Shown one piece after another: positions 4,301-61,173 of a DNA stretch of 64,000 bases (position 1 is the stretch's first letter; each line of letters starts with the position of its first letter). Location of the stretch: contig SHXR01000007.1 in the NCBI GenBank assembly GCA_009693235.1, positions 11,916 through 75,915 of the forward strand, in the 5' to 3' direction. The notes beneath the pieces are model-generated. The model had not been told where the DNA came from, did not search any database, and saw only the letters and a list, made by a program, of their open reading frames with translations. The position numbers and the translations under genes were made by a program. This stretch comes from Betaproteobacteria bacterium (GTDB lineage: Bacteria > Pseudomonadota > Gammaproteobacteria > Burkholderiales > SG8-39).

Positions 4301-4341
4301 TTAAAGAATCACTGAACAAGGGGCTCGCCCCCCCTTGTTCG
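4301..4341 (-). repeat. dual-hairpin repeat, partial copy (G5/C5 hairpin half)
   Basis: ttaaagaatcactgaacaaggggctcgccccccttgttcg aligns to the first 40 nt of copy C. Confidence 0.7.
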
Positions 4342-4342
4342 A

Positions 4343-5140
4343 TTATGGAGCGATGGTGAGATAAGCCGCGGTATGCGGATTGAACCGCAGCAAATCCTTG
4401 AGGGATGCTTTCATCGGCAGGCCGTAGCGCTTCTCCAGAAGCGCAGCCTCCCGGGTGATGGATTCAATCGACATGCGGGAAATAGACGTTTTGATTGCAA
4501 ACACAATGCGATTCACGCGATCACCGGTCGGCAACACGACCAGACGGCGGTTGAAGGTCTTCGACAGTCGATCAAAATACGTATCAAAGTGCGGTTCGTC
4601 CGCCATGAAATTCATGACGAACACCCCGTTTGGTCGCAGCGCCGCACCGCATGCATCAAAGAAATCCTGGGTGCAGAGCGCGCTCACCGTATCGCCGTCA
4701 TCGAACGCATCGTGAAACAGCACATCCGCGCACTCCGTATGGCGGGGCACGAACGACGCGCCATCCTCCGCAACCACGGTGAGGCGCTCGTCGTCTGCGG
4801 GTAACCCGAAATACTGTCTGGCGATCGCAATGACTTTCGGATTGATTTCGACGGCGGTGATGCGGGTGCGTTCAAAATGATGATGCAGAAAGCGGGCAAT
4901 GGAGCCGCCGCCCAAACCTATCATCAGGACATCCCGCGGCGCCGCTTGAAATAACAGAAACGTCATCATGGCGCGCGTATAGGAAAGCTCCAGACACTTC
5001 GGATCGGCGATGCGCATGGAGCTCTGAATAGCATCCCCGCCGAGGTGCAAGGAACGCACGCCGTCCATTTCACTTACTTCGACGTTTGGCAGACGCTGAA
5101 TCCAGCGCTTCAGTTTCTTTAGCGGGCTTGCAGATGGCAT
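4343..5140 (-). CDS. spermidine synthase-like (polyamine aminopropyltransferase fold) methyltransferase
   Basis: 265-aa ORF. Contains VLMIGLGGGSIARFL (motif I), ITAVEINPKVIAIAR and the acidic DAFD loop typical of spermine/spermidine synthase-like proteins. Confidence 0.7.
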   Translation of the reverse strand: MPSASPLKKLKRWIQRLPNVEVSEMDGVRSLHLGGDAIQSSMRIADPKCLELSYTRAMMTFLLFQAAPRDVLMIGLGGGSIARFLHHHFERTRITAVEINPKVIAIARQYFGLPADDERLTVVAEDGASFVPRHTECADVLFHDAFDDGDTVSALCTQDFFDACGAALRPNGVFVMNFMADEPHFDTYFDRLSKTFNRRLVVLPTGDRVNRIVFAIKTSISRMSIESITREAALLEKRYGLPMKASLKDLLRFNPHTAAYLTIAP

Positions 5141-5221
5141 ACCGGTAAGATAGCAGGGACTAAATGATTAAGAGCAAGCGACGAAGTATGCAATGCTTCA
5201 AGCGGTGTGCGCTAGTCTTGG

Positions 5222-5255
5222 ATTGAAGTTGCGGCGCGCGATCACTTAATCAGCG
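5222..5255 (-). repeat. dual-hairpin repeat, partial copy (hairpin-1 half)
   Basis: attgaagttgcggcgcgcgatcacttaatcagcgtttcccgaag aligns to the last ~40 nt of copy C. It ends 18 nt before the Bug pseudogene ATG. Confidence 0.65.
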
Positions 5256-5273
5256 TTTCCCGAAGGAGCCGTC

Positions 5274-6243
5274 ATGCAGCGCATTGCACACATTGTCTTC
5301 TCGGTTATCGCCACCTTAGCGGCGCCCACGTTGTTTGCGCAGTCAGCGTTTCCGAACCGGCCGCTCCGCATCATCGTGCCGCTTGCCGCCGGGGCACTAT
5401 CGACATTATCGCGCGTTCCGTCGCGCAGGCGCTCGGTGAACGGCTGGGACAGCCCGTATTGGTCGAGAATAGACCGAGTGCGAGCGCTCTGGTCGGCACG
5501 CAATTCGTCGCGCGCGCACCCGCTGACGGCTACACCCTGCTGGCGACCGCCAACACCTATGCCTCGGCGCCGGCGATCGTCACATCGCCCGGCTACGATC
5601 CCTATAAGGATTTTGTAGGCATCACCATGACATGTCGCATTCCGATGGCACTGGTGGTACATCCGGGTTCGCCGGTTCGATCGGTGCGCGAACTGATCGC
5701 TCTCGCCAAATCAAAAGAAGGGCGCTGAGTTACGGGTCGTCGGGCAACGGCTCGACCGCGCATATCGCGGCAGAACTCTTCAACCGGCAAGCCGGCGTGA
5801 AAATGCTGCATGTGCCGTACAAGGGCAACGCGCCGGCCCTCACGGATCTGATTGGCGGACAGATCACGATGCTCTTCGATCAGATCAGCACCTCATCGCC
5901 GCACATTCGTTCCGGCAAGGTGCGGGCCCTCGCCGTGACAACGCTTGCGCGCGCGGCCATCCTGCCTGATGTGCCGACGATCGATGAATCCGGACTGCCG
6001 GGGTTCGAAGACGTGACCTTCAATGGCATCGTGGCGCCGGCCGGCACGCCAAGCGCGATCGTCGATCGCCTGTACGCCGAAATTACCGCTGTGCTCGCGA
6101 TGCCCGAATTGAAGAAGCGCCATGGCGATCAAGGTATTGAGCTCATCGCCAGCCGATCCCCGCAGACATTCACCGAGTATCTGCATGCCGAAACACGCAA
6201 ATACGCAGCCCTTGCAAAAGAAGCCGGGATCAAGGCGGATTAA
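5274..6243 (+). pseudogene. Bug/TctC-family tripartite tricarboxylate transporter substrate-binding protein, two frameshifts
   Basis: Three ORF pieces in three frames (5274..5618, 5459..5728, 5632..6243) together spell one Bug protein: signal peptide ...AQSAFPNRPLRIIVPLAAG, then [28 protein letters not shown]..., then ...LSYGSSGNGSTAHIAAELF...KEAGIKAD. Frame switches lie at G-runs 5391-5394 and 5720-5722. Confidence 0.85.
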
Positions 6244-6323: not shown

Positions 6324-6362
6324 CCAAGGAAACGCTGATCAAGCGATCCTGCGGAATACGCT
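6324..6362 (+). repeat. dual-hairpin repeat, partial copy (hairpin-1 half)
   Basis: ccaaggaaacgctgatcaagcgatcctgcggaatacgct aligns to the first 40 nt of copy A. It lies 39 nt upstream of the Ldh-family gene start. Confidence 0.7.
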
Positions 6363-6400: not shown

Positions 6401-7495
6401 ATGCGCAACGTTCCTGCTGAACTTCTCCGCAAGCAAATCCAATCGGTGCTCACCGCCTGGGGCATGGACTCTGCGCTGGTTCGAACCACCGCCGATGTGA
6501 TGATCGAGACCGATCTTGCCGGAGTCGAGTCGCACGGCGTATCGATGCTGTGGGAATACGATCAATGGCGGCGGCGAGGCAAAGTCAATCTGCATGCGCG
6601 GTGCAAGATCGTACGGGAGAACGCGGTCACCGCATTAGTGGATGCCGATGCGGGACTCGGACATCCGGCCGCTGTCTACGGCATGCAATTGGCCATCGAG
6701 AAGGCGCGGGGGCTGGGGGTAGGGGTCGTGTCGGTGTTCAACTCGCATCATTTCGGCGCGGCCGGCTACTACGCACGCCTCGCTGCTGAGGCGGGAATGA
6801 TCGGACTGATCACCAGCGCAACGCGGACGATTGGCGTCGTGCCCACCCGTGCGAAGCTGCCGCTGCTTGGCACCAATCCGATCGCGTTTGCCGCCCCTGC
6901 CCGTCGCAATCGCCCGTTCGTCCTCGATATGGCCACCTCGACCGTCGCAGCCAACAAGGTACGCATCTACGACATGAAAGGTAAAGCGTTGCCACCCGGC
7001 TGGGTCGTCGATGAACGTGGTGAAGCCGTCCGTGACGCAGCGACCGGTATGGACATCGTGTTCCGGCGCGCAAAAGATCTAGGTGGCGGCCTCGCACCCC
7101 TTGGCGGCACCGCCGACATGGCCAGCCACAAAGGTTACGGCCTGGCGATGCTCGCGCATATTCTGGGTGGCACGTTGTCGGGCGGCTCGTTCTCACCGAT
7201 TCGCGTGAAGACGCAAAAGCCTGGCGATCCCGACAACATCGGCCATTTTTTCATGGCGCTGGATCCGCAAACGTTTCGGTCGGGTGGCGCATTCGAGGAC
7301 GATCTCGATTCGGCAATCGATGTGCTGCATCAGACGCCGCCTGCGAATCCAGCAGAGCCGGTGCTGGTGGCCGGTGACCCGGAGGCCACCACGCGCACCG
7401 AGCGCCTCGCGAACGGCATTCCGATCGCCGCTGCGCTGGCCACAAAAATACGGGAAGTGTGCGAGCAAAGCGGCGTGCCTTTCATCTTGGCGTAG
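6401..7495 (+). CDS. Ldh family (malate/L-lactate dehydrogenase type 2) oxidoreductase
   Basis: 364-aa ORF. Ldh_2-type sequence (ETDLAGVESHGVSMLWEY..., FNSHHFGAAGYYA, LGTNPIAFAAP, HKGYGLAML). Confidence 0.85.
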   Translation: MRNVPAELLRKQIQSVLTAWGMDSALVRTTADVMIETDLAGVESHGVSMLWEYDQWRRRGKVNLHARCKIVRENAVTALVDADAGLGHPAAVYGMQLAIEKARGLGVGVVSVFNSHHFGAAGYYARLAAEAGMIGLITSATRTIGVVPTRAKLPLLGTNPIAFAAPARRNRPFVLDMATSTVAANKVRIYDMKGKALPPGWVVDERGEAVRDAATGMDIVFRRAKDLGGGLAPLGGTADMASHKGYGLAMLAHILGGTLSGGSFSPIRVKTQKPGDPDNIGHFFMALDPQTFRSGGAFEDDLDSAIDVLHQTPPANPAEPVLVAGDPEATTRTERLANGIPIAAALATKIREVCEQSGVPFILA

Positions 7496-7561
7496 CGAGC
7501 ACCGCCATTCAAGCCCTTGCGTTACGATGCTGATTCGATCCCGATTGACATAGGACAGCCA

Positions 7562-8046
7562 ATGACAAAGCTCACGATCAACGGTAGAACGCGCGATGTG
7601 CAGGTGGAGTCGGACACCCGCTCTTGTGGGTGATCCGCGAACAAATCGGCCTCACCGGCACCAAGTTCGGCTGCGGCGTAGCGCTATGCGGTGCCTGTTC
7701 GGTGCATCTCAATGGGGAGGTCGTGCGCTCGTGTTCGATTCCGATAGCGAACATCAAGGCAACCGATCGCATCGTCACCATTGAAGGCTTGTCGCCAGCG
7801 AGCTCGCATCCGGTCCAAAAGGCGCGGGCGGATCTCGATGTGCCGCAGTGCGGCTATTGCCAGTCCGGCCAGATCATGGCGGCCGCCGCGCTGCTCAGAA
7901 AAAAGCCCACGCCCACCGATCAGGACATCGATGAGGCCATGACTAACATCTGCCGCTGCGGCACCTATCAGAGCATTCGCGCCGCGGTGCATCGCGCTGC
8001 GCAGGCGACCGCCGCTCCTGCGGCACCACGCAAACCGGCCGCGTAG
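7562..8046 (+). pseudogene. [2Fe-2S]-binding small subunit of a molybdenum hydroxylase (IorA-like), 5' frameshift
   Basis: ATG 7562 gives [19 protein letters not shown] and then TGA. The rest ([32 protein letters not shown]...[10 protein letters not shown]...CRCGTY) continues in another frame. The switch is at C-run 7617-7619. TTG 7624 could still give an N-terminally truncated product. Confidence 0.65.
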
Positions 8047-8057
8047 AGGGGCACATC

Positions 8058-10262
8058 ATGAAAAAATTATCCCGGCAAGCGCTCATCAACGATTCGCGCC
8101 GCCAATTTCTCGTCGGCTCAGCCGCTGTTGCAGGCGGCGGTCTGGCGGTCGGCCTGCCATTTGGATGGGGCGACACACAAGCGCAAAGTGCGGCCGGTGC
8201 GTCGCCGCTAGAGGTCAACGCATGGGTCGTGATCAAACCGGACGACAATTGCGTCATTCGCATTGCACGCTCGGAAATGGGCCAGGGCACCCGCACCGGC
8301 CTCGCCCAACTCGTCGCCGAAGAGCTCGAATGCGACTGGAAAAAGGTGCCGACGGAATACCCGACGCCCGGCGAAAGTCATGCCCGCAAGCGCGTATGGG
8401 GGGAATTCTCCACCGGCGGCAGTCGCGGCATCCGCATCTCGCATGATTACGTGCGCCGTGGTGGTGCCGCAGCCCGGATCATACTGATCCAAGCAGCAGC
8501 CAGTCAATGGAAGGTCCCTGCCGATCAGTTGACGGTATCGAATGGCGTCATCACCCACGCCGCTTCCAAGCGCAGCACGACGTACGGCAAAGTCGCCGCC
8601 GCCGCGGCAAAGCTCACGCCGCCCGATCCGGCCTCGATCACGCTGCGCGATCCCAAGCTCTGGAAGGTCGCCGGCAAGCCGCTCAAGCGCCTCGACACCG
8701 CGGGCAAGGTAAACGGCTCGCAGATGTATTCAATCGATCTCAAATTGCCCGGCATGTTGCACGCCGCCGTCAAGGATTGTCCGGTGTTCGGTGGCACGCT
8801 CAAGAGCTTCGACGCGGCCAAGATCGCCGGTCGCCCGGGCGTGCAACGCGTGTTCGCCATCAAGAATCGCACCGTCGTGGTGGTGGCAGACACTTGGTGG
8901 CATGCGAAGTCGGCCCTCGATGCCCTGCCGATCGAATGGGATGGCGGTTCGAACGCGACGCGATCGAGCGCGACCATCGACGCTCACTTAAAGGAAGGTC
9001 TCACCGCAGCCGAGGCCTACGCCGGTCGTGACGAAGGCAACACCTTGAAGGCCATCGAAGGCGCAGCGAAAAAGATCGAGGCGGTCTATAGCACACCGTT
9101 CCTGGCCCATGTCTGCATGGAACCGATGAATTGCACGGCGCGGGTGAGCGCGGATCGCGCGGAAGTGCGGGTTCCGACGCAAAACGGCGAAGCATCGCAC
9201 GCTGCGATGTCGGAAGAATCCGGTTTGCCGCTCGATAAATGCGAGGTCTACAAACAGGACCTCGATGGCGGCTTCGGGCGGCGTGGCGGCAATCAGGATT
9301 TCACGCGCATGGCCATCGCCATCGCCAAGGAGTTTCCCGGCACTCCGATCAAGATGATCTGGAGTCGCGAGGAAGATATCGCGCATGATTTTTATCGGCC
9401 GGTTTCGCAGTGTCGCCTGGCCGCTGGGCTCGATGAGTCAGACAAGCTGGTCGGGTTGCATCTGCGCGTATCGGGCCAATCGATCAACGCGTTTCAAAAT
9501 CCTGCGCTCATCAAAGACGGCAAGGATGATCGCCAGCTGCAGGGCTATTGGGCCAAACCGGGCGATGCGCAACTTGGCTATAGCGTGCCCAATCTGCTCA
9601 TTGAATATGCGATGCGAAATTCGCATGTACCGGTGGGAACCTGGCGCGGGGTCAATACCAATCAAAACGGCGTGTACATGGAATGCTTCATGGACGAGAT
9701 CGCCCGCGCTGCCGGCAAGGATCCGCTGGAATTCCGGCGCGCCCTAATGCAAAGCCATCCGAAGCATCTGGCCGTGCTCAATGCCGCCGCCGAACGGGCC
9801 GGGTGGGGCAAGCCGTTGCCTGTGGGTGTGCATCGCGGCATCGCGCAGTTCATGGGGTATGGCAGCTACTCCGCCACGGTGGCCGAAGTATCGGTGAGCC
9901 CGCAAGGTGCGGTGAAAGTCCACCGGATGGTGTTCGCGCTTGACTACGGCCATGCGGTGAATCCGGACCAGATCGCGGCGCAGGTCGAAGGCTCGGCGGC
10001 CTACGGGCTGAGTGCCACGTTCCATGAGGAGATCATCATCAAAGACGGCCGCGTCGAGACGGCCAACTTCCACAACTACCCGGTAATGCGCCTGGCCGAG
10101 ATGCCCAAAGTGGAAACGGTGATCGTGCCGTCATTCGACTTTTGGGGCGGCGTGGGCGAACCGACGATTTGCGTCGTCGGTCCGGCGGTGCTTAACGCGA
10201 TCTACGCGGCCACCGGCAAGCCAGTGCGAAGCTTGCCGGTGCGCAATGTAAAGCTGGTTTAG
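8058..10262 (+). CDS. molybdopterin-dependent oxidoreductase large subunit (isoquinoline 1-oxidoreductase beta / aldehyde oxidase family)
   Basis: 734-aa ORF 11 nt after the 2Fe-2S subunit. Twin-arginine signal SRRQFLVGSAAVAGGGLAV. Family-typical IARSEMGQGTRTGLAQLVAEEL and GVGEPT stretches. Confidence 0.85.
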   Translation: MKKLSRQALINDSRRQFLVGSAAVAGGGLAVGLPFGWGDTQAQSAAGASPLEVNAWVVIKPDDNCVIRIARSEMGQGTRTGLAQLVAEELECDWKKVPTEYPTPGESHARKRVWGEFSTGGSRGIRISHDYVRRGGAAARIILIQAAASQWKVPADQLTVSNGVITHAASKRSTTYGKVAAAAAKLTPPDPASITLRDPKLWKVAGKPLKRLDTAGKVNGSQMYSIDLKLPGMLHAAVKDCPVFGGTLKSFDAAKIAGRPGVQRVFAIKNRTVVVVADTWWHAKSALDALPIEWDGGSNATRSSATIDAHLKEGLTAAEAYAGRDEGNTLKAIEGAAKKIEAVYSTPFLAHVCMEPMNCTARVSADRAEVRVPTQNGEASHAAMSEESGLPLDKCEVYKQDLDGGFGRRGGNQDFTRMAIAIAKEFPGTPIKMIWSREEDIAHDFYRPVSQCRLAAGLDESDKLVGLHLRVSGQSINAFQNPALIKDGKDDRQLQGYWAKPGDAQLGYSVPNLLIEYAMRNSHVPVGTWRGVNTNQNGVYMECFMDEIARAAGKDPLEFRRALMQSHPKHLAVLNAAAERAGWGKPLPVGVHRGIAQFMGYGSYSATVAEVSVSPQGAVKVHRMVFALDYGHAVNPDQIAAQVEGSAAYGLSATFHEEIIIKDGRVETANFHNYPVMRLAEMPKVETVIVPSFDFWGGVGEPTICVVGPAVLNAIYAATGKPVRSLPVRNVKLV

Positions 10263-10268
10263 CGAACC

Positions 10269-10352
10269 TCCGGCGCAACGCTGATCAAGCTATCCCGCGC
10301 GATCAGCTGCTTTCGGAGAGTTACGAGCTGGCCTGTTCAGTGACTCCCTAGC
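10269..10352 (+). repeat. dual-hairpin intergenic repeat, degenerate copy E
   Basis: ...gcaacgctgatcaagctatcccgcgcgatcagctgctttcggagagttacgagctggcctgttcagtgactccctag. Hairpin 1 is retained (GCTGATC...GATCAGC); the G5/C5 stem is lost. Confidence 0.7.
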
Positions 10353-35183: not shown

Positions 35184-35816
35184 TCACATCCCTTGCGGGG
35201 GAATCCGTATCGGCCAACCAATTAGGGAATCACTAAACAAGGGGGCTCGCCCATTACTCTGGCTTGCGGTGGAATCGTCAAATGGGATGCGGGCTTCGAC
35301 CCAAGCGGCTATTTCAGTTTTTCCCAAATCAGGCTGCGAACGCTCATCTTGCCATCCACCGGATCCGGGCGACACCGGTGTAGACAGACTGACGCGATTG
35401 CCTTCGAACTTCGCAATGCGCAACTGCTTGGTGCCGGTCCACGCCTGATTCCACGATATGTCGACGTGATGCGTGAGCTCGTTACCTGAGATGGTGTAGG
35501 TTCCGGCGTAGCTGATCACAATGCGAAACAACGCATCGGCTTCAGCCGCCGTCGCCGTGTTGCCGGCCGGTTTAGTGCGCCCGCTGCGAACGATGATAAC
35601 CATCATTCGGTCATCTGGGCCATAGGTAATAAAGCCTTCCGGATTGGCCCCAAGCAGATCGGTCTTCACGCCCGAGAGCACTTCCTCTCGTATCACCGAC
35701 ACCAGTTTCCAGGTGCCAAGGACGCGGCTTGCGATGGTCTCGGAGGGCTGGGCGACGACGCTTTGACTGCCGATGAGCATGAACGCAAAAACCAATGACA
35801 AGGCGAGCTTACGCAT
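35184..35816 (-). pseudogene. lipocalin-like domain protein (secreted), 3' frameshift
   Basis: ATG 35816 (GGAAAGGAAG SD). Signal peptide MRKLALSLVFAFMLIGSQSVVAQ, then the GTWKLVSV...PEGFITYGPDDRMMV lipocalin-like core. After ...STPVS a C-run (35367-35369 on +) shifts the frame. The family-like ending PDPVDGKMSVRSLIWEKLK-stop (stop at 35309-35311) is in the other frame. The open frame runs on into a repeat copy. Confidence 0.6.
35221..35252 (-). repeat. dual-hairpin repeat, partial copy (G5/C5 half, truncated)
   Basis: attagggaatcactaaacaagggggctcgccc aligns to the first 32 nt of copy C. Confidence 0.7.
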
Positions 35817-48669: not shown

Positions 48670-48684
48670 GACGCCTCCTATTAT

Positions 48685-48783
48685 CTAAGGAAACGCTGAT
48701 TAAGCTATCTCGCGTAATCAGCGTGACCATAATTTTCGGGGAGTTACGAGGGGGCGAACCCCCTTGTTCAGTTATTCCCTAAG
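48685..48783 (+). repeat. dual-hairpin intergenic repeat, full copy A (reference copy, 99 bp)
   Basis: ctaaggaaACGCTGATTAagctatctcgcgTAATCAGCGTgaccataattttcggggagttACGAGGGGGcgaaCCCCCTTGTtcagttattccctaag. Hairpin 1 is a 10-bp perfect stem. Hairpin 2 is a G5/C5 stem. TA lies at both borders, with imperfect inverted ends GGAAACGCTG / CAGTTATTCC. Confidence 0.9.
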
Positions 48784-52475: not shown

Positions 52476-53446
52476 TATTTCGCCGACGCCAAGCCGGAAC
52501 CCGCGATCGATTGTTTTACGCGCTCGATCGCCTTCGCCAAGGCAATCGGCGACAAGAGCTGCGAGTCGGAAAACCTGATGATGATCGGCTGGGCGAGCCT
52601 CGGGTCGATGGGGCTTGGCGACTATCCGCGCGCGATCACGCATCTGGACGCCGGCCTTGCCATCGCGCGGGCCGCCGATCTCGCCTGGCATATCGGTCCC
52701 CTGCGGATTGCACGCGATCACATCCGCCACTGCCTTGGGCAGTTCGGCGAAGCCTGGCAGGGCCTCAACGAAACGTTGAAGCGATTGGAAGAACTGCACT
52801 TAGTCCGCTACCAGATGATGGCCTGCAACATGCTGGGGCACCTGTTGCTTGATTTGTCGCTCGATGCTCAGGCAACGGCCGCATTTGACTGCGGACTCGC
52901 GATCGCCAATCAAGCCAATATGACTTATTGGACCCCGCTTCTGCATGCCAATCGCGCGATCGCGCGAGTGCGGCAAGGTGCGCCGGATGTGGAATCGGAA
53001 CTGGTGAGCGCGCTCGAGCATTCGCTGACCAATCGGGAAGGCTGGTTCCTGCCACGCTGTTACGAGGGGCTCGCCGAGTTGCAATGGCGGCGCGGCGACA
53101 CAGCACGGTGCATACACTATGTCGATCAGCTTCTATCGCTCGCCGAACAGGGCAATCTGCGCGAAGTGCGCGCGCGGACAGCGATGGCGGGGTGAAGCGA
53201 TGCTGGCAAGCGGTCATCACGAAGCGGCGAATACCGAATTGCGCGCCGCGCTTGGTACGCTGCGCTTATCATGGGATATTCATCACGCGTTAGCGCGAGT
53301 CTCACGCGTTAGCGCGAGTCTCACGCGTTAGCGCGCAACCCGAAACGGCCAAACGCCACGACGCTGATGCGCTCGATCTGCGGACCAGAATCGAATTGAG
53401 TCTACGCGACACCGATTTACGGCTGGGACCAAACGATCTCGTCTAA
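52440..53446 (+). pseudogene. 3' remnant (TPR-like repeat region) of a large regulatory protein, at least 2 frameshifts
   Basis: No N-terminal domain is present. TPR-like helical repeats (AIDCFTRSIAFAKAIGDKSCESENLMMIGWASLGSMGLGDYPRAITHLDAGLAIARAADL...) continue through three frames (52338.., 53119.., 53348..) to TAA 53444-53446. Confidence 0.45.
53284..53335 (+). repeat. 19-bp tandem repeat, ~2.7 copies
   Basis: cacgcgttagcgcgagtct x2 followed by cacgcgttagcgcg. It lies inside the decayed TPR-regulator remnant. Confidence 0.85.
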
Positions 53447-54227
53447 AGCCCCAGAAAATCCAACACCGCCCGATCGAAGATCTCGGTCTGCTCGATATTC
53501 GGCAGGTGCCCCGCGTTCTTGATCACCACCAACTTCGAGCCTTGAATCCCGCGCTGTAGGAACTCAGCGGCGCTCACCGGCGTGCCGACATCCTGTTCAC
53601 CCACGATGATCAACGTAGGCATCTTGATGTCGGCAAGGATTGATGCCTGATTCATTTTCTTGATCGCATGCGCGCAACCCACCAGACCATCGACCGCGGT
53701 ACGTGAAATCATCGTGGCCATTTTCTCCATCTGCGCGGGATGAGTCTCACGATAGGATTGCGTGAGCCAGCGCTCCGTCATCCCCTTCACAAACGCGGAA
53801 GTTCCCTTGCTTTGCGCAAGGGCAATGCGATCGTCCCATGCCGATTCCGGGGTAAATGGCACGCGGTATCGCAAAGGACCACCGTTCGCAGCCGTGCTGC
53901 GTGCTTCGCGGCCAGACATTGCGCAATCATGCCGCCCATCGATAGCCCAAGAAAATTCACCCGATCGATCCGCAACGCATCGAGCAGTGCTACCACATCG
54001 GCGGCCAGGAGATCGATGGTGTACGGGCCGGGCGTAGCTTCCGTCCCGCCATGACCGCGCGTGTCGTAGCGCAGCAATCGATACTTCGCGGCAAACGCCG
54101 GCACTTGCAAGTCCCACATGCCGTAATCGGTCAGAAGTGAATTGCTCAACATGAGAACGGGTGCATTCACAGGGCCATCGAATTGATAGCTGATCTCGAT
54201 GCCGTTGGCTTTGATGCGGCTGGACAT
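53443..54227 (-). pseudogene. alpha/beta hydrolase, 3-oxoadipate enol-lactonase (PcaD)-like, one frameshift
   Basis: ATG 54227 (GAGGAAAG SD). MSSRIKANGIEISYQFDGPVNAPVLMLSNSL...GLSMGGMIAQ...VLCDTA in ORF 53787..54323. It continues as VPFTPESAWDDRIALAQSKG...NAGHLPNIEQ in ORF 53443..54117. The switch is near 53860-53866. Confidence 0.8.
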
Positions 54228-54276: not shown

Positions 54277-54373
54277 CCAAGGGAACTCTGATTAGAACCT
54301 ATCTCATCAATCCGCGTTCTCAAAGATCGAGGGAGTTACGAGGGGGCGAGGTCCTTGTTCAGTTAATCCCAAG
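54277..54373 (+). repeat. dual-hairpin intergenic repeat, full-length degenerate copy D
   Basis: ccaagggaactctgattagaacctatctcatcaatccgcgttctcaaagatcgagggagttacgagggggcgaggtccttgttcagttaatcccaag. The right half is well conserved; both stems are eroded. Confidence 0.8.
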
Positions 54374-54437
54374 CATATACACGGGATCAAATCTGCGCCG
54401 CCAGGCGCGCAATCGGGTAGCCTCGCCGCATCCTGCC

Positions 54438-54953
54438 ATGACCCTTAATACTCGGCACGTCCCTATGCCATCCACCGCCAACGAAGTCGGCAAGTACCAG
54501 ATCGGCCTGCGCTCCTATCGTAATATCGGTTGGGCCCTCGTGGTACTCGGCGCGCTTTGCATCGTCGGCGCATGGTCGGCGCAGGTGTATTGGGCAACGG
54601 GTGTATTCGGGCTGCTTAGCGGAGTGGGGCTCTACATGGCCCTTGCCGCTGGGGGGTTCGATTTGGATGCGGACGGCATTCGTCACCGTTCGACGTTTGG
54701 CGCCTGGGCCATCAAGTGGGATGAGATCACGCATGTCGAAATCGGCGTAACCGACGGCACCTTCGTACTGGCCGGCAGCACCAAGCGCTTCATCTTGTCG
54801 CCATCTGGTTGGTGGTCCGGACTGGATACGGGCGGTGCGCTCGATTTTCTGGTTGAACAACTAAAGGCCCGCAATCTGCCGCCGCAACCGAGCCGGACCG
54901 CTGCGTACAAGATCATGAAGAACACGCGGGTGGAAAGACGCGCCGCGCTGTAG
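54438..54953 (+). CDS. hypothetical two-TM membrane protein
   Basis: ORF 54183..54953; its 5' part is a repeat copy, so ATG 54438 (or 54465) is the likely start. Two hydrophobic helices (IGWALVVLGALCIVGAW and VFGLLSGVGLYMALAAGGF), then a ~100-aa soluble tail. Confidence 0.5.
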   Translation: MTLNTRHVPMPSTANEVGKYQIGLRSYRNIGWALVVLGALCIVGAWSAQVYWATGVFGLLSGVGLYMALAAGGFDLDADGIRHRSTFGAWAIKWDEITHVEIGVTDGTFVLAGSTKRFILSPSGWWSGLDTGGALDFLVEQLKARNLPPQPSRTAAYKIMKNTRVERRAAL

Positions 54954-54984
54954 CGGGTTACGAATTCGCCGCGGGTCGGATCGA

Positions 54985-55080
54985 TTAGGGAAACGCTGAT
55001 TGAGCTTTCCCGCTCAATCAGCGTGCTCAAATATTCAGGGAGCTACGAGGGGCGAGCCCCCTCGTTCAGTGATTCCTTAG
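54985..55080 (+). repeat. dual-hairpin intergenic repeat, full copy B
   Basis: ttagggaaacgctgattgagctttcccgctcaatcagcgtgctcaaatattcagggagctacgaggggcgagccccctcgttcagtgattccttag. Collinear with copy A, and both hairpins are kept by compensatory changes (GATTGAGC...GCTCAATC). Confidence 0.9.
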
Positions 55081-55323
55081 TCCGACCCAAGCGCCGCGAC
55101 GAATGACGAGGGCGCTCACCACGCCGATCACTCCATTGGCCAGCACGACGTAAAGAATTGTGAAAGTCGCGGCACCACGTGCGCCTTCGCTCGCTCACGT
55201 GCGATGTTAGGCGGAATTACCGATGTCGAGCATGCCTCGCGTTGCGTACCATCAAGGTACCGACCTCATCGTCGAGCGTGCACCGGCATGTCACAACCGG
55301 CCAAGGGAAAGGGGGGGGTCGCG

Positions 55324-57968
55324 ATGTTTGGCCGAATGAACGATGCAATAAGGCCGCTCGCGATGCTTGCGATGCTTGCGATGCTTGCGTTGCTCACACT
55401 CGCCGGCTGTGGCGGCGGTGGTGAGGGTGGGGGTATTGCCGGGCTTCCTAGTCCCAGCAGCAACGATGCATTTTCTCTGTCTGCATCAAGCGTCTCTTTT
55501 CAGGATTTCAGGGCGACCATCAAAACGCAAAGACGGTGGTCGTGACCATGCACCGCGGGAATTTTCTTATCGAGGCAACTACCAACGGCAGACTGGTTAC
55601 CGGAACCTTCAATGCGATCAATGCCTCCACCGGCGTCTTGACCCTCAATTTACCGAACGCGTCGCTCCGGGCACCGGGCACTTACACAGGGACCGTTTCT
55701 GTTCGGGCCTGCACCAATGCGGTCTGTTCGCCGGGAAGTGAAGTTGCCGGCAGCACAAAACTGATCAACGTCTCCTTCGCCGTTGCCGCCGATCTTGCCG
55801 TATCGACGACCAATACGAATATTACTTACGCTACCAGCGGCCCCAATCCGGCTCAGCAGCCGATCAATGTGGCCGCCGCAGCAGGCATGGCGTGGAGTGC
55901 GTCGTCGAATCAGCCCTGGCTCGGCCTTAGCGGAATCAGCGGCGTCGGCCCCGGCACTGTCAACTACATCGTCAATCCTAGCGGGCTCGCGCTTGGCACC
56001 TACAACGGTATTCTTACGTTCAGCGCTCCCAGTATAGGGCGCACCAAAACGCTGGTAATAACGCTGAATATTGTGGCACCGGCAACGACCGCAGGCACCG
56101 GGTCGCTGACATTTACCGGGATCGCCGGTACAGCGGTGCCATCGCAATCGATCAACGTGACCATGAACAATGGCACGCCTGTCAACTGGTCCGCGACAGC
56201 AGGCGCCGCATGGCTGGTGGCGAGTCCGACTACCGGTACCACACCTGCGGTACTGACCGTCGGCATCAATGCTTCTGGTTTGGGCGCGGGTACCTATACA
56301 TCGAGCGTCACCATCGCAGGCGCCGGGCTTAGCGCTCCGACCACGCTCAATGTCTCACTCGTGCTGTCGACACCGACGTTGGGCGTAACGCCGGACAACT
56401 TGTCGTTCGGCGGACCAGACGGTGGTTACGACCCAAGCGGCAAGACGGTTCAACTCAGCATCAATACCGGCGCGAACGCGTTCGCATGGAGCGCGAGCAG
56501 CCCCAACGCATGGTTGCAGGTCTCACCTGCCGCGGGCTCAATCTCAGCGACCCCAGCAACGATTACCGTCAAGGTCAACGCGGCGAGTCTACCCATCGGG
56601 ACCCATAACGGGTCGATCAACTTCACCGCACTCGTCAATGGCGTCCCGGTGAATCACTCATTACCGGTTAGCGCGCGAATCGATGCGCACAAGATCCCGG
56701 TGAGCGATGTGGGGGTGGCGTTGACCAGCGCACCGTCTGCTTCAAAATTGACCCAGACGTTGAAAGTGAGGAGCAACCGCGGCGCCCCCATTATCTGGTC
56801 GGCAAGTTCGAACCAGACGTGGCTTACCGCAACATCGAGCGGCGTGACAACGGGGGATCTAGTGCTTACCGCCAACCCATCTGGACTCACCGCGAATACA
56901 GTGCACCATGCAAACGTAGTCATAACCTCGACCGATGTCTCCGTAACGAACATCGAGACCGTGCGTATCGGGCTTTGGGTCGGTTCAACGACGACGACGC
57001 CTGGCCCCATCGCACAGACGCTAGAACGTCTGTATGCGGTGGATCCGATCCGGCCTTACGCTTATGGATATGACGTGGTGAACGGGCAACCCAGCCTCAT
57101 CGTTCTAAACATCTACAACCGGGGTATCGTGGCCACCGTGCCAATCGGTGCGCCCATGGGCACGGCGGTGGTCGCCAAAGATGGATCGCGCCTGTTTGTC
57201 TCTGACGATCAGCAACGCATCATCCCGATTGATCTTCCTTCCTTTGCGGTTGGGACTCCATGGGCGAATAGCATCGCCGGAGCACCGCTTGTCGCCCCTC
57301 CCACCGATCTTGAATACGCACGATCGAATGGAGTCGGCCTGCTTATTTCCGGCAATGGGCGTTTTTACGATCCCGCGACGGGTACCCCATACAACACCAC
57401 CTTTGCGACCGGAGCGATCGATTCACTGCGCCGGGTACGGACTAGTCGAGACGGCAATTTGCTTTGCCATCAGACCACGAGCTGGTATCCGTACACCCTG
57501 AGCTGTCATGGACTCTATATCGCATCAGACACACCGAGCCAAGTGCTGCTCGGCCCAATAAAATCTGGCCTTGCGGGGAACGGGACCCAGGCTGGATCCG
57601 ACTTCGCAATCAATTGGAACGGAACACGTGTGTACGTTCCATCCTTCATGTGTTGTTCCGCTGCGACGGGTGAGTTCCGGGTTTTCGATGCGACGACATC
57701 GACTGCGACCATGGCCGAAACGCAAACATTCCACTATGCCGGCAACCCGAACGGCGTCGAGATTCATCCGGATGGTCGGATTTTCTTCGGCAGCGCGGTC
57801 GCGGGAACGGGCACGGATGTTTGGGTTCACGACAGTAACGGGGCATTCCTCACCAGTTACGAGCTGTCTTCCTCCGCAGGCGCCTTGTCCACGCTCATGT
57901 TTTCGGGTGACGGTCTCCAGGCAATCGCCATTTCCGACCGCGTCTTGATCACTACGATTGGTCCGTGA
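55324..57968 (+). pseudogene. large lipoprotein with five tandem Ig-like (BACON-type) repeats and a C-terminal beta-propeller-like domain, frameshift after the signal peptide region
   Basis: ATG 55324 sits behind a G-rich SD. The lipoprotein signal MFGRMNDAIRPLAMLAMLAMLALLTLAGC and first ~55 aa are in ORF 55204..55545. The remaining 810 aa are in ORF 55536..57968. The frames join (...SASSVSFSGFQGDHQNAKTVVVT...) if T-run 55497-55500 gains one T. Confidence 0.65.
55360..55386 (+). repeat. 9-bp in-frame tandem triplication inside a signal peptide
   Basis: gcgatgctt x3 (perfect), followed by a diverged fourth unit gcgttgctc. It encodes (AML)3 within LAMLAMLAMLALL, in the hydrophobic core of the lipoprotein signal. 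Confidence 0.9.
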
Positions 57969-58065
57969 GCAATCCCGGAGCCGGATTGATTCTCGCTACA
58001 TGGCAATAATGAGGGCCAGGGGTCGCATCTTGTATCATCACACCCTGCATTGAAAGGTTGCCACG

Positions 58066-58932
58066 ATGACCCGTCCCCTCCGTATCGAATACCCCGGCGC
58101 TGTCTATCACGTTACTTCCCGCGGCAACGCTCGCCAACGAGTCTTTCTCGATGGTGATGACCGCGAAGCTTTCTTGGCGACCTTGGCATGGGTGGTTGAA
58201 CGCTTTGGCTGGCTTTGCCACGCCTATTGTTTGATGGACAACCACTTTCACTTGTTGATCGAGACGCCAGAAGCCAATCTTTCCCGCGGCATGCGCCAAT
58301 TGAATGGCGTCTACACACAGACCTTCAATCGCCGCCATCAGCGAGCCGGTCATCTGTTCCGCGGGCGATTCAAGGGGATTCTGGTCGAGAAAGATAGTTA
58401 CCTTCTGGAATTGAGTCGCTACATCGTCCTCAATCCGGTGCGAGCAAAAGTGGTCAAGCATCCCGGGCGCTACGCTTGGAGCAGCTACCGCGCAACGTTG
58501 GGGGTGGCACCGGTGCCGCCGGCTCTGACCATCGACCGGCTATTGGAGCGGTTCGCAAAAACCCGATCCGTCGCCCAGAAGCGCTATGCGGAGTTTGTGC
58601 AGGCCGGAATTGGCGGCGCATCGCCCTGGGAGAAATTAAAGGGGCAGGTGCTTTTGGGGGATGTCGCCTTCATTGAAAAAATGGCGCCGCAACTCAACCA
58701 GCGCCTGGCATCGATGGAAACTTCCCGGCGGCGGCGACTGATGCATCGTCCGTCGCTCAAGACACTGTTGGCGGGAACAAAATCCAAGGAAGCGCGAAAT
58801 AGTATGCTCGCTCGCGCATACCTGGAGCATGGCTACACCCTTGCAGAACTTGGCCGTGCCACCGATTTGCACTTTGCGACGGTGAGTCGAATCATCAAGG
58901 CGGTCGAGAAAAAATCGCAAAGCAAGATGTGA
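58066..58932 (+). CDS. HUH/Y1 transposase-like protein (IS200/REP-associated RAYT-type) with C-terminal HTH
   Basis: Intact 288-aa ORF. YHVTSRGN, HUH motif DNHFHLLIE, catalytic Tyr context LSRYIVLNPVRA. The C-terminal ~60 aa form a DnaA-domain-IV-like HTH (YTLAELGRATDLHFATVSRIIKAVE). No terminal IS ends are seen next to the gene. Confidence 0.8.
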   Translation: MTRPLRIEYPGAVYHVTSRGNARQRVFLDGDDREAFLATLAWVVERFGWLCHAYCLMDNHFHLLIETPEANLSRGMRQLNGVYTQTFNRRHQRAGHLFRGRFKGILVEKDSYLLELSRYIVLNPVRAKVVKHPGRYAWSSYRATLGVAPVPPALTIDRLLERFAKTRSVAQKRYAEFVQAGIGGASPWEKLKGQVLLGDVAFIEKMAPQLNQRLASMETSRRRRLMHRPSLKTLLAGTKSKEARNSMLARAYLEHGYTLAELGRATDLHFATVSRIIKAVEKKSQSKM

Positions 58933-58936
58933 CGCC

Positions 58937-59742
58937 ATGACCCGCACATTGCTGGAAAGCGCCTATACCCAAGGGCGCGACAGTATCTACCACACGAGCG
59001 AGCTCACCCGTGGCCCTTGGCATCCTGATCGCCAGCACGCCGGCCCGCCGTTGCGTTGGCGTGCCGCGCGATGGAGCGCGTCGCAGAGGGGAGTGGCCTC
59101 ACCCATATCGCCCGCCTCACCGCTAATCTGCTGCGCCCGATTCCGCTCGGCGATCTCACCGTCAGCGTGGCGACCGATTACGTCGGGCGCAATGCCGGCC
59201 ACTATTCCGCGCAGCTTTTCGCTGCCGGCAAGGAGGTCGCGCGCTTCACCGCGCTCGCGCAACGAGAGAATCCGATGCGGCTGCCTCAATTGCACCCCGA
59301 TGCGCCACAGGAAACAGCGCCACGCACGCTCGAAGCGTCGCCGCCTTGCCAATTTCCGTTTGCCGGCCACCATGTGGGTTATGCCGATCTGGTCGAGACG
59401 CGTCTTGCCAAAGGGCGTATCTTCGATGGGCCCTGTGCCACCCGGTTCCGATTGTGTTTTCCACTCGTGCAAGGCGAGTCAACGAGCGATTTTCAACGCA
59501 TCGCGGTATTCGCCGATTCAGGAAATGGCATTAGCGCTCCACTCGATTTTGCCAAGTACATCTTCGTCAACGCCAATCTGACCATCAACTTTCTAAGGAA
59601 GCCGCGTGGCGATTGGATCTGCCTCGACGCGCAGTCGCATGTTGCGTCAAACGGAGCCGGCGTTACCACATCCAAGTTGTTCGATACCGAAGGACTGATT
59701 GGTTTCGCGACGCAAAGCCTCGCGGTACGGCCGCGTGAGTGA
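58937..59742 (+). pseudogene. acyl-CoA thioesterase-like (double hotdog, TesB/4HBT_3-type) protein, one frameshift
   Basis: ATG 58937 gives MTRTLLESAYTQGRDSIYHTSELTRGPWHPDRQHAGPP. The sequence continues as (V)ALACRAMERVAEGSGLTHIARLTANLLRPIPLGDLTV... in ORF 59056..59742. The switch is near 59047-59051. Confidence 0.7.
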
Positions 59743-59766
59743 GCGGCCGACGCGTTGATCCGGCCC

Positions 59767-60726
59767 TTAAGTAGTCTTGGTCGCCTTCTCAGGCCTTGGC
59801 CATCGCGCCGCCACGCGTGGCAGCACTTCGTCGATCAAGCGTCTGGTCTGCGTCATCATGTCTGCGTCACCACGCCCTAGCGGCCGCAAGATGAATTTCG
59901 ACGCACCGGCTTCGATGTAGGCGGCGAGGCGCGTGAGGATGGAGTCGGCGTCACCGAACACGAAGTAGTCCAAGGGATCCTTGTTGGTGCGCTTTCGATA
60001 GGCGTCCATCAAGCGCTCCATACCGCTCCCTTCCGCCGTGCCGAAGCGAAACGGGAAGGCCGCTCCGTAATGGTCCTCATCGATAGTCCGACCAAGTGCC
60101 CGCGCCGCAGCATCGATGCCGGCGACGATCGGCGCAACTTCCGCGGGCGTTTCCGGTCCGCCTTGCCAACCAGTGCCGTACTGTGCCGTGCGCTTGATCG
60201 CAGCTTCCGAGCCACCGCCAATCCAGATTGGCAGCTCCGCTTGCACCGGACGTGGGGCGATCGATGCACCCTTCAAGGTCCAATACGCGCCCTGATAGTC
60301 CACCGACGGCTCGGTCCAGAGGCGCCGCACGATGATGAGCGCTTCATTGGTGCGCCGGCCGCGTGTCTTGGTGTCGATGTCGAGCGCCGCCCACTCGGGG
60401 GCCATTGGACTGCCGATACCGAATCCCGGCAGCAGGCGCCCGCCCGACAGCATGTCGATCGTGGCGCATTGCTTGGCGGCAAGTACGGGATCACGGAGCG
60501 CAAGCGACACGACATTCATACCGAATTTGATGCGCTTGGTACGACCGGCCAACGCACCCATCGTCACCATACACTCGAGAATCACTTCCTTGCTGATCAG
60601 GCGATCGGTCTGCCAGAGCGAATCGACGCCGCCCGCTTCGCAAAGATCCACCCAGCGCCAAAAACCCGCGGCACCCTCAAATGGAAATTCCTGCAGGCCA
60701 AGACCAACGGCGATGCTACGGGTCAT
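59767..60726 (-). CDS. LLM-class flavin/F420-dependent oxidoreductase
   Basis: From internal ATG 60726 (AAGGAGA SD). MTRSIAVGLGLQEFPFEG...DSLWQTDRLIS...IDMLSGGRLLPGFGIGS...LPIWIGGGS. Confidence 0.85.
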   Translation of the reverse strand: MTRSIAVGLGLQEFPFEGAAGFWRWVDLCEAGGVDSLWQTDRLISKEVILECMVTMGALAGRTKRIKFGMNVVSLALRDPVLAAKQCATIDMLSGGRLLPGFGIGSPMAPEWAALDIDTKTRGRRTNEALIIVRRLWTEPSVDYQGAYWTLKGASIAPRPVQAELPIWIGGGSEAAIKRTAQYGTGWQGGPETPAEVAPIVAGIDAAARALGRTIDEDHYGAAFPFRFGTAEGSGMERLMDAYRKRTNKDPLDYFVFGDADSILTRLAAYIEAGASKFILRPLGRGDADMMTQTRRLIDEVLPRVAARWPRPEKATKTT

Positions 60727-60758
60727 GCGTTCTCCTTGCTCTCGTGCGGGCACGCGCT

Positions 60759-60857
60759 CTTAGGGAATAACTGAACAAGGGGGCTCGCCCCCTCGTAACT
60801 CCCTGAAAAGTATGAGCACGCTGATTGCGCGCGATAGCTTAATCAGCGTTTCCTTAG
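60759..60857 (-). repeat. dual-hairpin intergenic repeat, full copy C (inverted orientation)
   Basis: cttagggaataactgaacaagggggctcgccccctcgtaactccctgaaaagtatgagcacgctgattgcgcgcgatagcttaatcagcgtttccttag is the reverse complement of the copy A/B architecture. It lies 33 nt upstream of the LLM gene start. Confidence 0.9.
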
Positions 60858-61023
60858 ATTCTATGCCCACTCTGCACATCAAACAGATGCGCATGCCGAG
60901 CTTGCGGCGCAAGGACCGTGGTGGTCTTCAACCGCTGGTGCGGCGCCTTGATCTTCGCACGCATCGCGACCCGCAGCTTTGCATCGATGACGTCTCTCAC
61001 GGTACCTCCACCGTAAGGGATTC

Positions 61024-61052
61024 AAAGGCCGCCTAGGCCGCCTTTTTTCTTT
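61024..61052 (+). terminator. intrinsic terminator with no annotated upstream gene
   Basis: aaaggccgcc-ta-ggccgccttt stem (one C/C mismatch) running into ttttttcttt on the + strand. Confidence 0.6.
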
Positions 61053-61075
61053 ACTGGCGTTCGATGAATCGCGCG

Positions 61076-61117
61076 GCGCTTGCCCCCGATCGCTTGCCCC
61101 CGATCGATTGCTCCCGA
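61076..61117 (+). repeat. 14-bp tandem repeat, 3 copies
   Basis: cgcttgcccccgat, cgcttgcccccgat, cgattgctcccgat, in the 485-bp intergenic region upstream of the VOC gene. Confidence 0.8.
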
Positions 61118-61147
61118 TTCATCGTCCATCAACGATCAGGCGCGGCG

Positions 61148-61173
61148 CTTAGTGAATAACTGCCCCCCCTGAG
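61148..61173 (-). repeat. dual-hairpin repeat, short degenerate fragment
   Basis: cttagtgaataactgccccccctgag resembles the terminal 26 nt of copy C (cttagggaataactgaacaagggggc). Confidence 0.45.

Follow-up and report, generated by a model that had tools for sequence, protein, structure and literature searches.

Introduction

HUH Y1 enzymes, such as those of the IS200/IS605 insertion sequences (IS) and of repetitive extragenic palindromic (REP) sequences, move single DNA strands that are bounded by subterminal hairpins, without terminal inverted repeats (TIRs) and without duplication of the target. Genes that resemble those of REP-associated tyrosine transposases (RAYTs) and are flanked by inverted repeats of the motif GGGGWSAS have been described under the names TIRYT and TIRtron (Di Nocera et al. 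2013, PMC3733652). TIRYT was later equated with subclass 2.1 of TnpA_Y1, which comprises long proteins with an HTH_23, HTH_28 or Bac_DnaA_C tail, has no REP in its vicinity and was found in 14.9% of strains (Quentin et al. 2018, PMC6006769). Here we examine a 64,000-nucleotide stretch of contig SHXR01000007.1 from a Betaproteobacteria bacterium (the window), in which an intact Y1 HUH gene (58066–58932, + strand) lies in the neighborhood of several copies of a short, two-hairpin repeat. The original prediction held either that this RAYT-like enzyme mobilizes or maintains the repeat as an atypical substrate, or that the association is coincidental and the repeat is a TA-targeting miniature inverted-repeat transposable element (MITE). 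We found that the gene is a member of the known TIRYT class and that the repeat is a MITE whose mechanism is of a known kind. The two are very probably unrelated elements, a TIRYT/TIRtron gene and a MITE moved by a DDE transposase most like those of the IS5 group, that lie near each other by chance. The tempting inference of a RAYT with a new type of substrate is thereby removed.

The repeat is a MITE that duplicates four base pairs of its target

The repeat is an 88–90-nt MITE with imperfect TIRs (GGAAACGCTGAT...GTTCAGTTATTCC), the left and right ends of which are identical at 11 of 16 positions. It is flanked on each side by a 4-bp direct duplication, and the 99-mer first proposed consists of this element together with its two duplications. 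A pattern scan over one genome per species found the element in five other metagenome-assembled genomes (MAGs); together with the window these six genomes hold 42 full copies, to which 29 metagenome loci are added. The 4-bp left and right flanks are identical in 28 of the 42 full copies and match at three or more of the four positions in 40 of them, against a mean of 6.2 identical flanks and a maximum of 15 in 10,000 shuffles of the left and right partners. Among the 23 cases with a non-palindromic flank, 18 were direct matches and none was inverted. The commonest duplications are CTAA (nine copies), TTAG (six), TTAA (six) and CTAG (four), with the consensus YTAR; further variants also agree between the two sides.

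The left and right sides covary at positions 1 and 4 of the duplication (Fisher 1.7e-8 and 8.8e-9, respectively). Because the outer positions covary, the duplication is 4 bp long and not the 2-bp TA; a 2-bp TA duplication of the IS630/Tc1-like kind was considered and is ruled out by this covariation. Hence, of the second option in the original prediction, the coincidence and the MITE stand, but the TA target has to be replaced by YTAR. Correia elements and other TA-duplicating MITEs are likewise ~100-nt intergenic elements with TIRs and with TA at the center of the target. The window MITE differs from them in the 4-bp length of its duplication and in the left-right covariation of the outer positions.

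An empty site is available for the copy at 54278–54373. In the window the filled site reads ...GAGTTAC-CAAG-element-CAAG-CATATACACGGG, and the orthologous locus L077 reads ...GCGTGC-CAAG-CATATACACGAG. Since L077 has one CAAG followed by the same right flank as the window (CAAGCATATACACG), it represents the empty site. The abhydrolase gene at the two loci has 85% DNA identity, and the Y1 proteins are 79% identical. Furthermore, the MITE forms tandem arrays at four loci (L011, L020, L023 and L074) in which neighbors share one duplication. From the TIRs, the target duplication of fixed length and the empty site it follows that the repeat is a non-autonomous element moved by cut-and-paste DDE transposition. 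The combination of direct 4-bp flank duplications and an empty site provides a discriminator that needs the sequence only: it points to a DDE transposon, and neither trace is left by HUH elements.

The copies fall into two subfamilies. Those of TH-11nov19-3 and SOY_29 are near-identical to the window copies, and a second, 106-nt subfamily with ~97–99 nt between the duplications and a different interior occurs in ME-08apr19-248, MH-08apr19-83 and a Lake Erken bin. The only features that the two have in common are the termini (left GGAAACGCTGATyAAG; right CTTGTTCAGTTATTCC, also written GGAATAACTGAACAAG) and the adjacent, G+C-rich hairpin 2. The 106-nt subfamily lacks the strong hairpin 1 of the window subfamily, and hairpin 1 is therefore not the recognized feature. 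We also considered the repeat as a REPIN, that is, as two inverted REPs, and rejected this; the hairpins do not resemble each other in sequence, and the second subfamily lacks one of them.

Outside the window, MAGs of uncultured Betaproteobacteria/Burkholderiales and apparently freshwater metagenome contigs carry the MITE. Many copies are found in CAMCYY01 and CAMDRJ01 (L005–L033), which were deposited as "Bordetella parapertussis ME-08apr19-248" and "Klebsiella pneumoniae TH-11nov19-3"; both species labels look wrong. We found no description of this MITE family of uncultured freshwater/soil Burkholderiales, in a literature that was not systematically searched for it. A mini-derivative of ~45 nt, composed of two facing MITE right ends (GGAATAACGTACAAGG...CCCCCTTGTTCAGTTATTCC), is present twice at L075 (806–848 and 1425–1465), downstream of duplicated gene copies.

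Copies of the MITE in the window

Copies in the window were located by blastn and by an nhmmer profile with reporting at E < 0.01, and the ten copies first counted, four of them full length, were recovered by these searches. Three full copies are clean. The first (48685–48782, +; element 48689–48778) has the target-site duplication (TSD) CTAA on both sides, an nhmmer E of 1.6e-32 and a fold z of −4.9. The second (54985–55080, +; element 54989–55076) has TTAG on both sides and an E of 6e-29, with a DNA fold of −26.5 kcal/mol (z −6.1). The third (60760–60857, −; element 60764–60853) has CTAA on both sides (TTAG on the + strand) and an E of 3.5e-33; it is located 33 nt upstream of the start of a luciferase-like gene and is 93% complementary to the copy at 48683–48783. 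The fourth full copy, that of the empty-site comparison, is degenerate (54278–54373, +; element 54282–54369; E 2.4e-13) and retains CAAG on both sides.

The remaining copies are incomplete. The copy at 10277–10350 (+; E 4e-10) has internal deletions. Right-end fragments lie at 4302–4335 (−; E 7.3e-5), where hairpin 2 and the right TIR are kept, and at 35222–35253 (−; E 1.3e-5), and left-end fragments at 5234–5261 (−; E 0.004, with an exact 16-nt blastn match), where the left TIR and the 5' arm of hairpin 1 are kept, and at 6326–6362 (+; E 7.7e-4). The total of ten is reached provided that a possible right-end remnant of ~25 nt at 61148–61173 (−) is counted, a weak 15-nt blastn-short match (E 1.1) that nhmmer did not report.

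As originally described, the full copies, when folded as single-stranded DNA, form two hairpins (z −2.8 to −6.1). Hairpin 2 is G+C-rich and conserved, and hairpin 1 shows compensatory changes between copies. Such features, together with the intergenic position of the copies near gene starts or ends, would also be expected if the repeat were a functional structured element, such as a terminator, a small RNA or a protein-binding site, that had spread by recombination or selection and not by transposition. We consider this highly improbable. The direct 4-bp duplications and the empty site record insertion events, and neighbors in the tandem arrays share one duplication; moreover, an Rfam search of the whole window gave no match, and the copies near the Y1 gene are found in both orientations and at varied positions with respect to genes, at gene starts as well as gene ends. 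Secondary, exapted effects of the MITE on expression are compatible with its spread by transposition.

Two further arrangements of copies were observed. A 956-nt unit (4305–5260, −) is bounded by a left-end fragment (at 5260) and a right-end fragment (at 4305) in the correct order and the same orientation, and encloses a complete open reading frame (ORF) for a 265-aa spermidine-synthase-like methyltransferase (4343–5140). Its outer 4-bp flanks do not match (TTCG versus TTAA), and the unit could be either two decayed copies or a MITE with a captured gene. In addition, a 162-aa ORF of unknown function (~54465–54953) lies between the two copies within 54278–55080, which have the same orientation; the ORF is also found at the orthologous locus L077, there without MITEs. 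The outer flanks of this pair differ (CAAG versus TTAG), and hence there is no sign of composite mobilization.

The Y1 gene belongs to the TIRYT/TIRtron class

The gene at 58066–58932 encodes a 288-aa protein with an HUH core, the tyrosine Y119 and a C-terminal helix-turn-helix (HTH) at ~241–287. The protein matches Pfam Y1_Tnp (E 3.5e-12) and NCBIfam NF047646 (REP_Tyr_transpos; 80.5 bits versus a cut-off of 80). Its homologs number over 8,000; apart from the exact match, 119 were listed, with 65–79% identity and a length of ~283 aa, from Burkholderiales, Hydrogenophilales, Gammaproteobacteria and Nitrospira. In an alignment of 32 homologs, H60 is conserved throughout and H62 almost throughout (the HUH motif, NHFHLL in the window), and Y119, N123 and P124 as well as W138, S139, S140 and Y141 are invariant. 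The first description of the gene as an intact, RAYT-like HUH/Y1 gene with the motifs NHFHLL and Y-x-x-x-NP and a C-terminal HTH is thus borne out by Pfam, NCBIfam and the alignment.

The AlphaFold model is of moderate confidence overall (predicted local distance difference test, pLDDT, 63). The core and the three-helix C terminus (241–287) are predicted with confidence, and the block over residues 231–280 reaches a pLDDT of 82–89. Foldseek matched the core to the TnpA proteins of ISDra2 and IS608 and to E. coli TnpA_REP (4er8), which gave the longest alignment (167 columns; TM 0.62 normalized to the target). A PDB sequence search with the protein returned nothing useful. The HTH had been described as DnaA-domain-IV-like. 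We found that the HTH is real, with matches to HTH_23 in 27 of the 32 homologs (best E 6.7e-8), to HTH_38 in 24 and to HTH_28 in 22, but that the likeness to DnaA is not supported, as Bac_DnaA_C matched none of the 32. The window protein itself matches HTH_23 at just E 0.036. The same abhydrolase gene adjoins the Y1 gene in the window and at L077, L037 and L076, and this neighbor, kept in four related genomes, shows that the Y1 gene is positionally stable in the lineage.

The original prediction stated that the gene lacks flanking IS ends. We found instead that a 27-bp TIR brackets it, decayed in the window and well conserved in most orthologs. The TIR, of consensus GGGTCACATCTTGTAATATGACATTT, flanks most of the 11 orthologs that we fetched from Burkholderiales, Hydrogenophilales and Nitrospira. 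In the ten aligned loci the left TIR, GGGTCACATCTTGTAATATGACATTTT, begins 44–46 nt before the ATG, and an inverted copy overlaps the stop codon in nine of the ten; the left consensus agrees with the right one at 25 of 27 positions. Both TIRs are present at L083, and at L079 the left TIR core lies ~59 nt before the ATG with no recognizable right end. The window holds the most decayed form. Its left TIR (GGGTCGCATCTTGTATCATCACACCCT; 58020–58046, +) starts 46 nt before the ATG and matches the ortholog consensus at 20 of 27 positions. The right TIR (58909–58935, −; reverse complement GCGTCACATCTTGCTTTGCGATTTTTT) overlaps the last codons and the stop and matches at 19 of 27, and the two agree with each other at 14 of 27. 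The pair 58019–58032 and 58923–58936 is 86% complementary. The TIR core is absent elsewhere in the window, bar one match with two mismatches at 8048, which is at chance level, and a Sigma-70 consensus scan found no promoter in the left TIR.

These ends carry the published TIRYT motif in slightly altered form. With the preceding G (58019), the window left TIR reads GGGGTCGC, one mismatch from GGGGWSAS, and the right TIR reads GGCGTCAC (reverse complement) at 58936, also one mismatch away. The orthologs have GGGGTCAC or GGGTCAC inside the 27-bp TIR, on both sides in most loci. The unit at 58066–58932 thus matches the TIRYT/TIRtron class (subclass 2.1) by its described features, as distinct from its place in a tree. 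Its Y1 HUH core is RAYT-like, the catalytic tyrosine being followed in the gene family of the window by the serine motif WSSY, and its long C-terminal extension holds an HTH of the HTH_23/HTH_28 kind. No REP lies beside the gene, which is single-copy, is bracketed by GGGGWSAS repeats and overlaps the right repeat with its 3' end. It differs from the described class in the decay of its TIRs, with loss of the stop in the right TIR, and in that its subfamily has no Bac_DnaA_C match.

The likeness to the REP/REPIN-associated RAYTs (E. coli TnpA_REP, 4er8; Pseudomonas REPINs) is confined to a homologous catalytic domain and to a single-copy, vertically stable gene. In contrast to those systems, no REP or REPIN flanks the window gene, the immediate flanks of which hold the 27-bp TIR. 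The window repeat is not a 20–40-nt GTAG-headed palindrome but has TIRs and target duplications, and it is absent around the orthologs in other genomes. For the TIRYT class our results define the ends more sharply: the 27-bp consensus lies at a set distance from the ATG, and the right repeat contains the stop codon. These end features could be of use to annotation pipelines in which such genes are at present called "REP-associated".

The TIRtron is a unit of ~900 bp, and conservation of its protein (65–79% identical among the listed homologs) and of its 27-bp ends extends from Burkholderiales to Nitrospira. The HTH or HUH domains of the Y1 protein would act on the TIRs of the unit itself, and the window copy, with the most decayed TIRs, is probably no longer mobile.

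Several observations concern the TIRtron ends. In most orthologs a TAA stop codon lies inside the right TIR. In the window (58918–58932) this TAA is lost, and the ORF is therefore four codons longer, running on to a TGA that is still inside the TIR (ending ...SKM); the ...KM ending is common to the homologs P0017, P0044, P0101 and P0110. At four of ten ortholog loci, tandem duplication (two or three times, with periods of 17–42 nt) has affected the outermost GGGTCA(C) together with 11–14 nt of the host flank beside it. The sites are L077 3101–3160, L038 9915–9965 and 10855–10930, L042 9900–9965 and L040 900–950, and in the window 58936–58946, where an extra ATGACCC box lies 8 nt outside the right TIR. 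The part of the flank that is duplicated differs per genome, and the duplications are hence local events; they may have been left by cleavage and rejoining of the ends. L083 has four TIR cores (5604, 5956, 6855 and 7208) and two adjacent Y1 genes, the second Y1_Tnp ORF being 7253–7843. L035 has a solo right-type TIR at 8851, ~850 nt upstream, across an HNH gene. These tandem and solo ends suggest insertion next to existing ends.

The recurrent duplications of host flank plus GGGTCA and the tandem and solo ends are the sole mildly unusual feature of the system. They could be taken to mean that the TIRtron is an active cross-phylum element with a new end-processing footprint, its Y1 enzyme nicking and rejoining its own ends and inserting beside ends already present, and not a silent domesticated gene; we regard this as unlikely.

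The gene and the repeat are probably not linked

It had been noted that four of the ten copies, including three of the four full-length ones, lie within 4 kb of the Y1 gene, and we reproduced this count. It does not amount to clustering beyond chance. When the copies are placed at random, four of them fall within one 8.9-kb span in 60% of cases (scan statistic, p = 0.60), and an equal cluster is found at 4.3–10.3 kb without any Y1 gene nearby. The copies nearest to the gene end at 55076 (2,989 nt upstream) and start at 60764 (1,831 nt downstream), with other genes between, and the 27-bp TIR of the gene is unrelated in sequence to the MITE ends.

In the flanks searched, the gene and the repeat also do not co-occur in other genomes. 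No MITE copy was found in the 151 kb around the 11 orthologs (68–79% identity), the syntenic loci L037, L076 and L077 included, where 12–24 copies would be expected at the density of the window. Conversely, no Y1 ortholog was found in the 313 kb (223 kb plus 90 kb) around MITE copies. Nor does the repeat have a signal of the kind that RAYTs use. GTAG occurs on either strand in just five of the 42 copies, and no GTAG or CGTC head was found. The conserved tetranucleotide 5' of hairpin 2 for which a search had been suggested is not common to all copies: these 4 nt are ATAT (23 copies) or AGTT (14), according to subfamily.

If the Y1 enzyme nevertheless mobilized or maintained the two-hairpin repeat as an atypical REP/REPIN-like substrate, one could point to its intact catalytic residues, to the NCBIfam cut-off for REP-associated proteins, which it just reaches, and to the hairpins that the repeat forms. 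In addition, genome-wide families of TIR repeats have been reported for some TIRYT genes elsewhere (PMC3733652). TIRs with a 4-bp direct duplication are not HUH chemistry, however. The GTAG motif is rare in the copies, the tetranucleotide varies by subfamily, and hairpin 1 is missing from the 106-nt subfamily; no copy abuts the gene, the TIR of which is a different sequence; the ortholog flanks are free of the MITE; and the nominal proximity is set against the scan statistic and the equal cluster without a Y1 gene. Taken together, these findings contradict a role of the RAYT-like enzyme in moving or maintaining the repeat, which is scarcely to be believed.

We therefore favor two unrelated elements that adjoin by chance, a reading against which four points have to be set. 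Four of ten copies in the pre-chosen 8.9-kb interval around the gene give a nominal binomial p of 0.039, which becomes 0.06 with the seven confident copies only (three of seven). The co-occurrence tests covered flanks of 3–21 kb on metagenome contigs and MAGs, as opposed to complete genomes. Activity of a TIRYT enzyme on foreign hairpins would be formally possible. Finally, no donor IS or DDE transposase for the MITE was found in the window, in the 313 kb of MITE-bearing loci or among the PLSDB plasmids.

The MITE transposase may belong to the IS5 group

In the mechanism that we propose, a DDE transposase from a full-length IS elsewhere in the genome would bind the MITE ends in trans, make a 4-nt staggered cut at YTAR and insert the MITE, so that the 4 bp of the target are duplicated; the Y1 enzyme would have no part in moving the repeat. 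The IS5 target-site duplication is 4 bp with the sequence YTAR (PMC5009759). The ends of E. coli IS5A (from NC_000913.3), GGAAGGTGCGAA(C/T)AAG, match the MITE ends at 9–11 of 16 positions, which include the terminal GGAA and GAAyAAG at positions 10–16. As the donor IS was not found, it is from the duplication and from this resemblance that we infer a transposase of the IS5 group of the IS5 family. The window element is like the insertion sequences of that group and the MITEs derived from them in its YTAR duplication and its ~16-bp imperfect TIRs that start with GGAA and carry GAAyAAG, and in being short, non-coding, multi-copy and intergenic. It differs in the modest identity of its TIRs to those of E. 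coli IS5, in having a conserved G+C-rich subterminal hairpin beside the right TIR, and in that the searched loci yielded no autonomous partner.

The searches for such a partner were of several kinds. Pairs of MITE ends 300–3000 nt apart in the window and the loci were chance pairs only, bar the 956-nt methyltransferase unit with its mismatched flanks. tblastn with E. coli InsH gave no match in the window or any locus, and blastn of the MITE gave none among PLSDB plasmids. Scanned with the right end, the metagenomes yielded MITE copies, one chance match (L061) and the 45-nt mini-palindrome of L075, and nothing else.

The MITE could also be moved by a DDE transposase from another family. Duplications of 4–5 bp are made by other IS families as well, among them IS701, ISH3 and IS1380. 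The missing donor in the window, loci and plasmids, the blank InsH search and the TIR similarity to IS5 of just 9–11 of 16 positions all leave room for such a family. The 4-bp YTAR duplication is, on the other hand, a documented signature of IS5 (PMC5009759), and the MITE ends share with IS5A both the GGAA start and GAAyAAG at positions 10–16. We hence judge a transposase from outside the IS5 group to be quite unlikely.

Neighboring genes and integrity of the assembly

The G+C content is ~60% across the whole window. A protein identical to that of 58066–58932 is recorded as "MAG: transposase [Betaproteobacteria bacterium]" on an 85-kb contig and is also present in three other assemblies from the same population. 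Directly 3' of the stop codon of an 810-aa BACON-like gene lies a small hairpin (57971–57989; CAATCCCGG-AG-CCGGATTG), which is without a T-run and is unrelated to the MITE or the TIR.

The Y1 gene had been singled out as intact in a window full of broken genes. Between 50.3 and 63.3 kb, 10 of 11 genes are equal in length to the calls on an independent ENA contig, so that the Y1 gene does not stand out locally. The sole mismatch is the abhydrolase gene (53443–54227, −), which is split by a 1-nt indel in the window and is an intact 261-aa gene in the ENA assembly from the same population. Given this intact abhydrolase and the equal lengths of the other ten genes, at least part of the broken genes of the window may be assembly errors or strain polymorphisms and not genome decay. 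Elsewhere in the window, a TctC/Bug-family gene (5274–6243, +) is broken across three frames.

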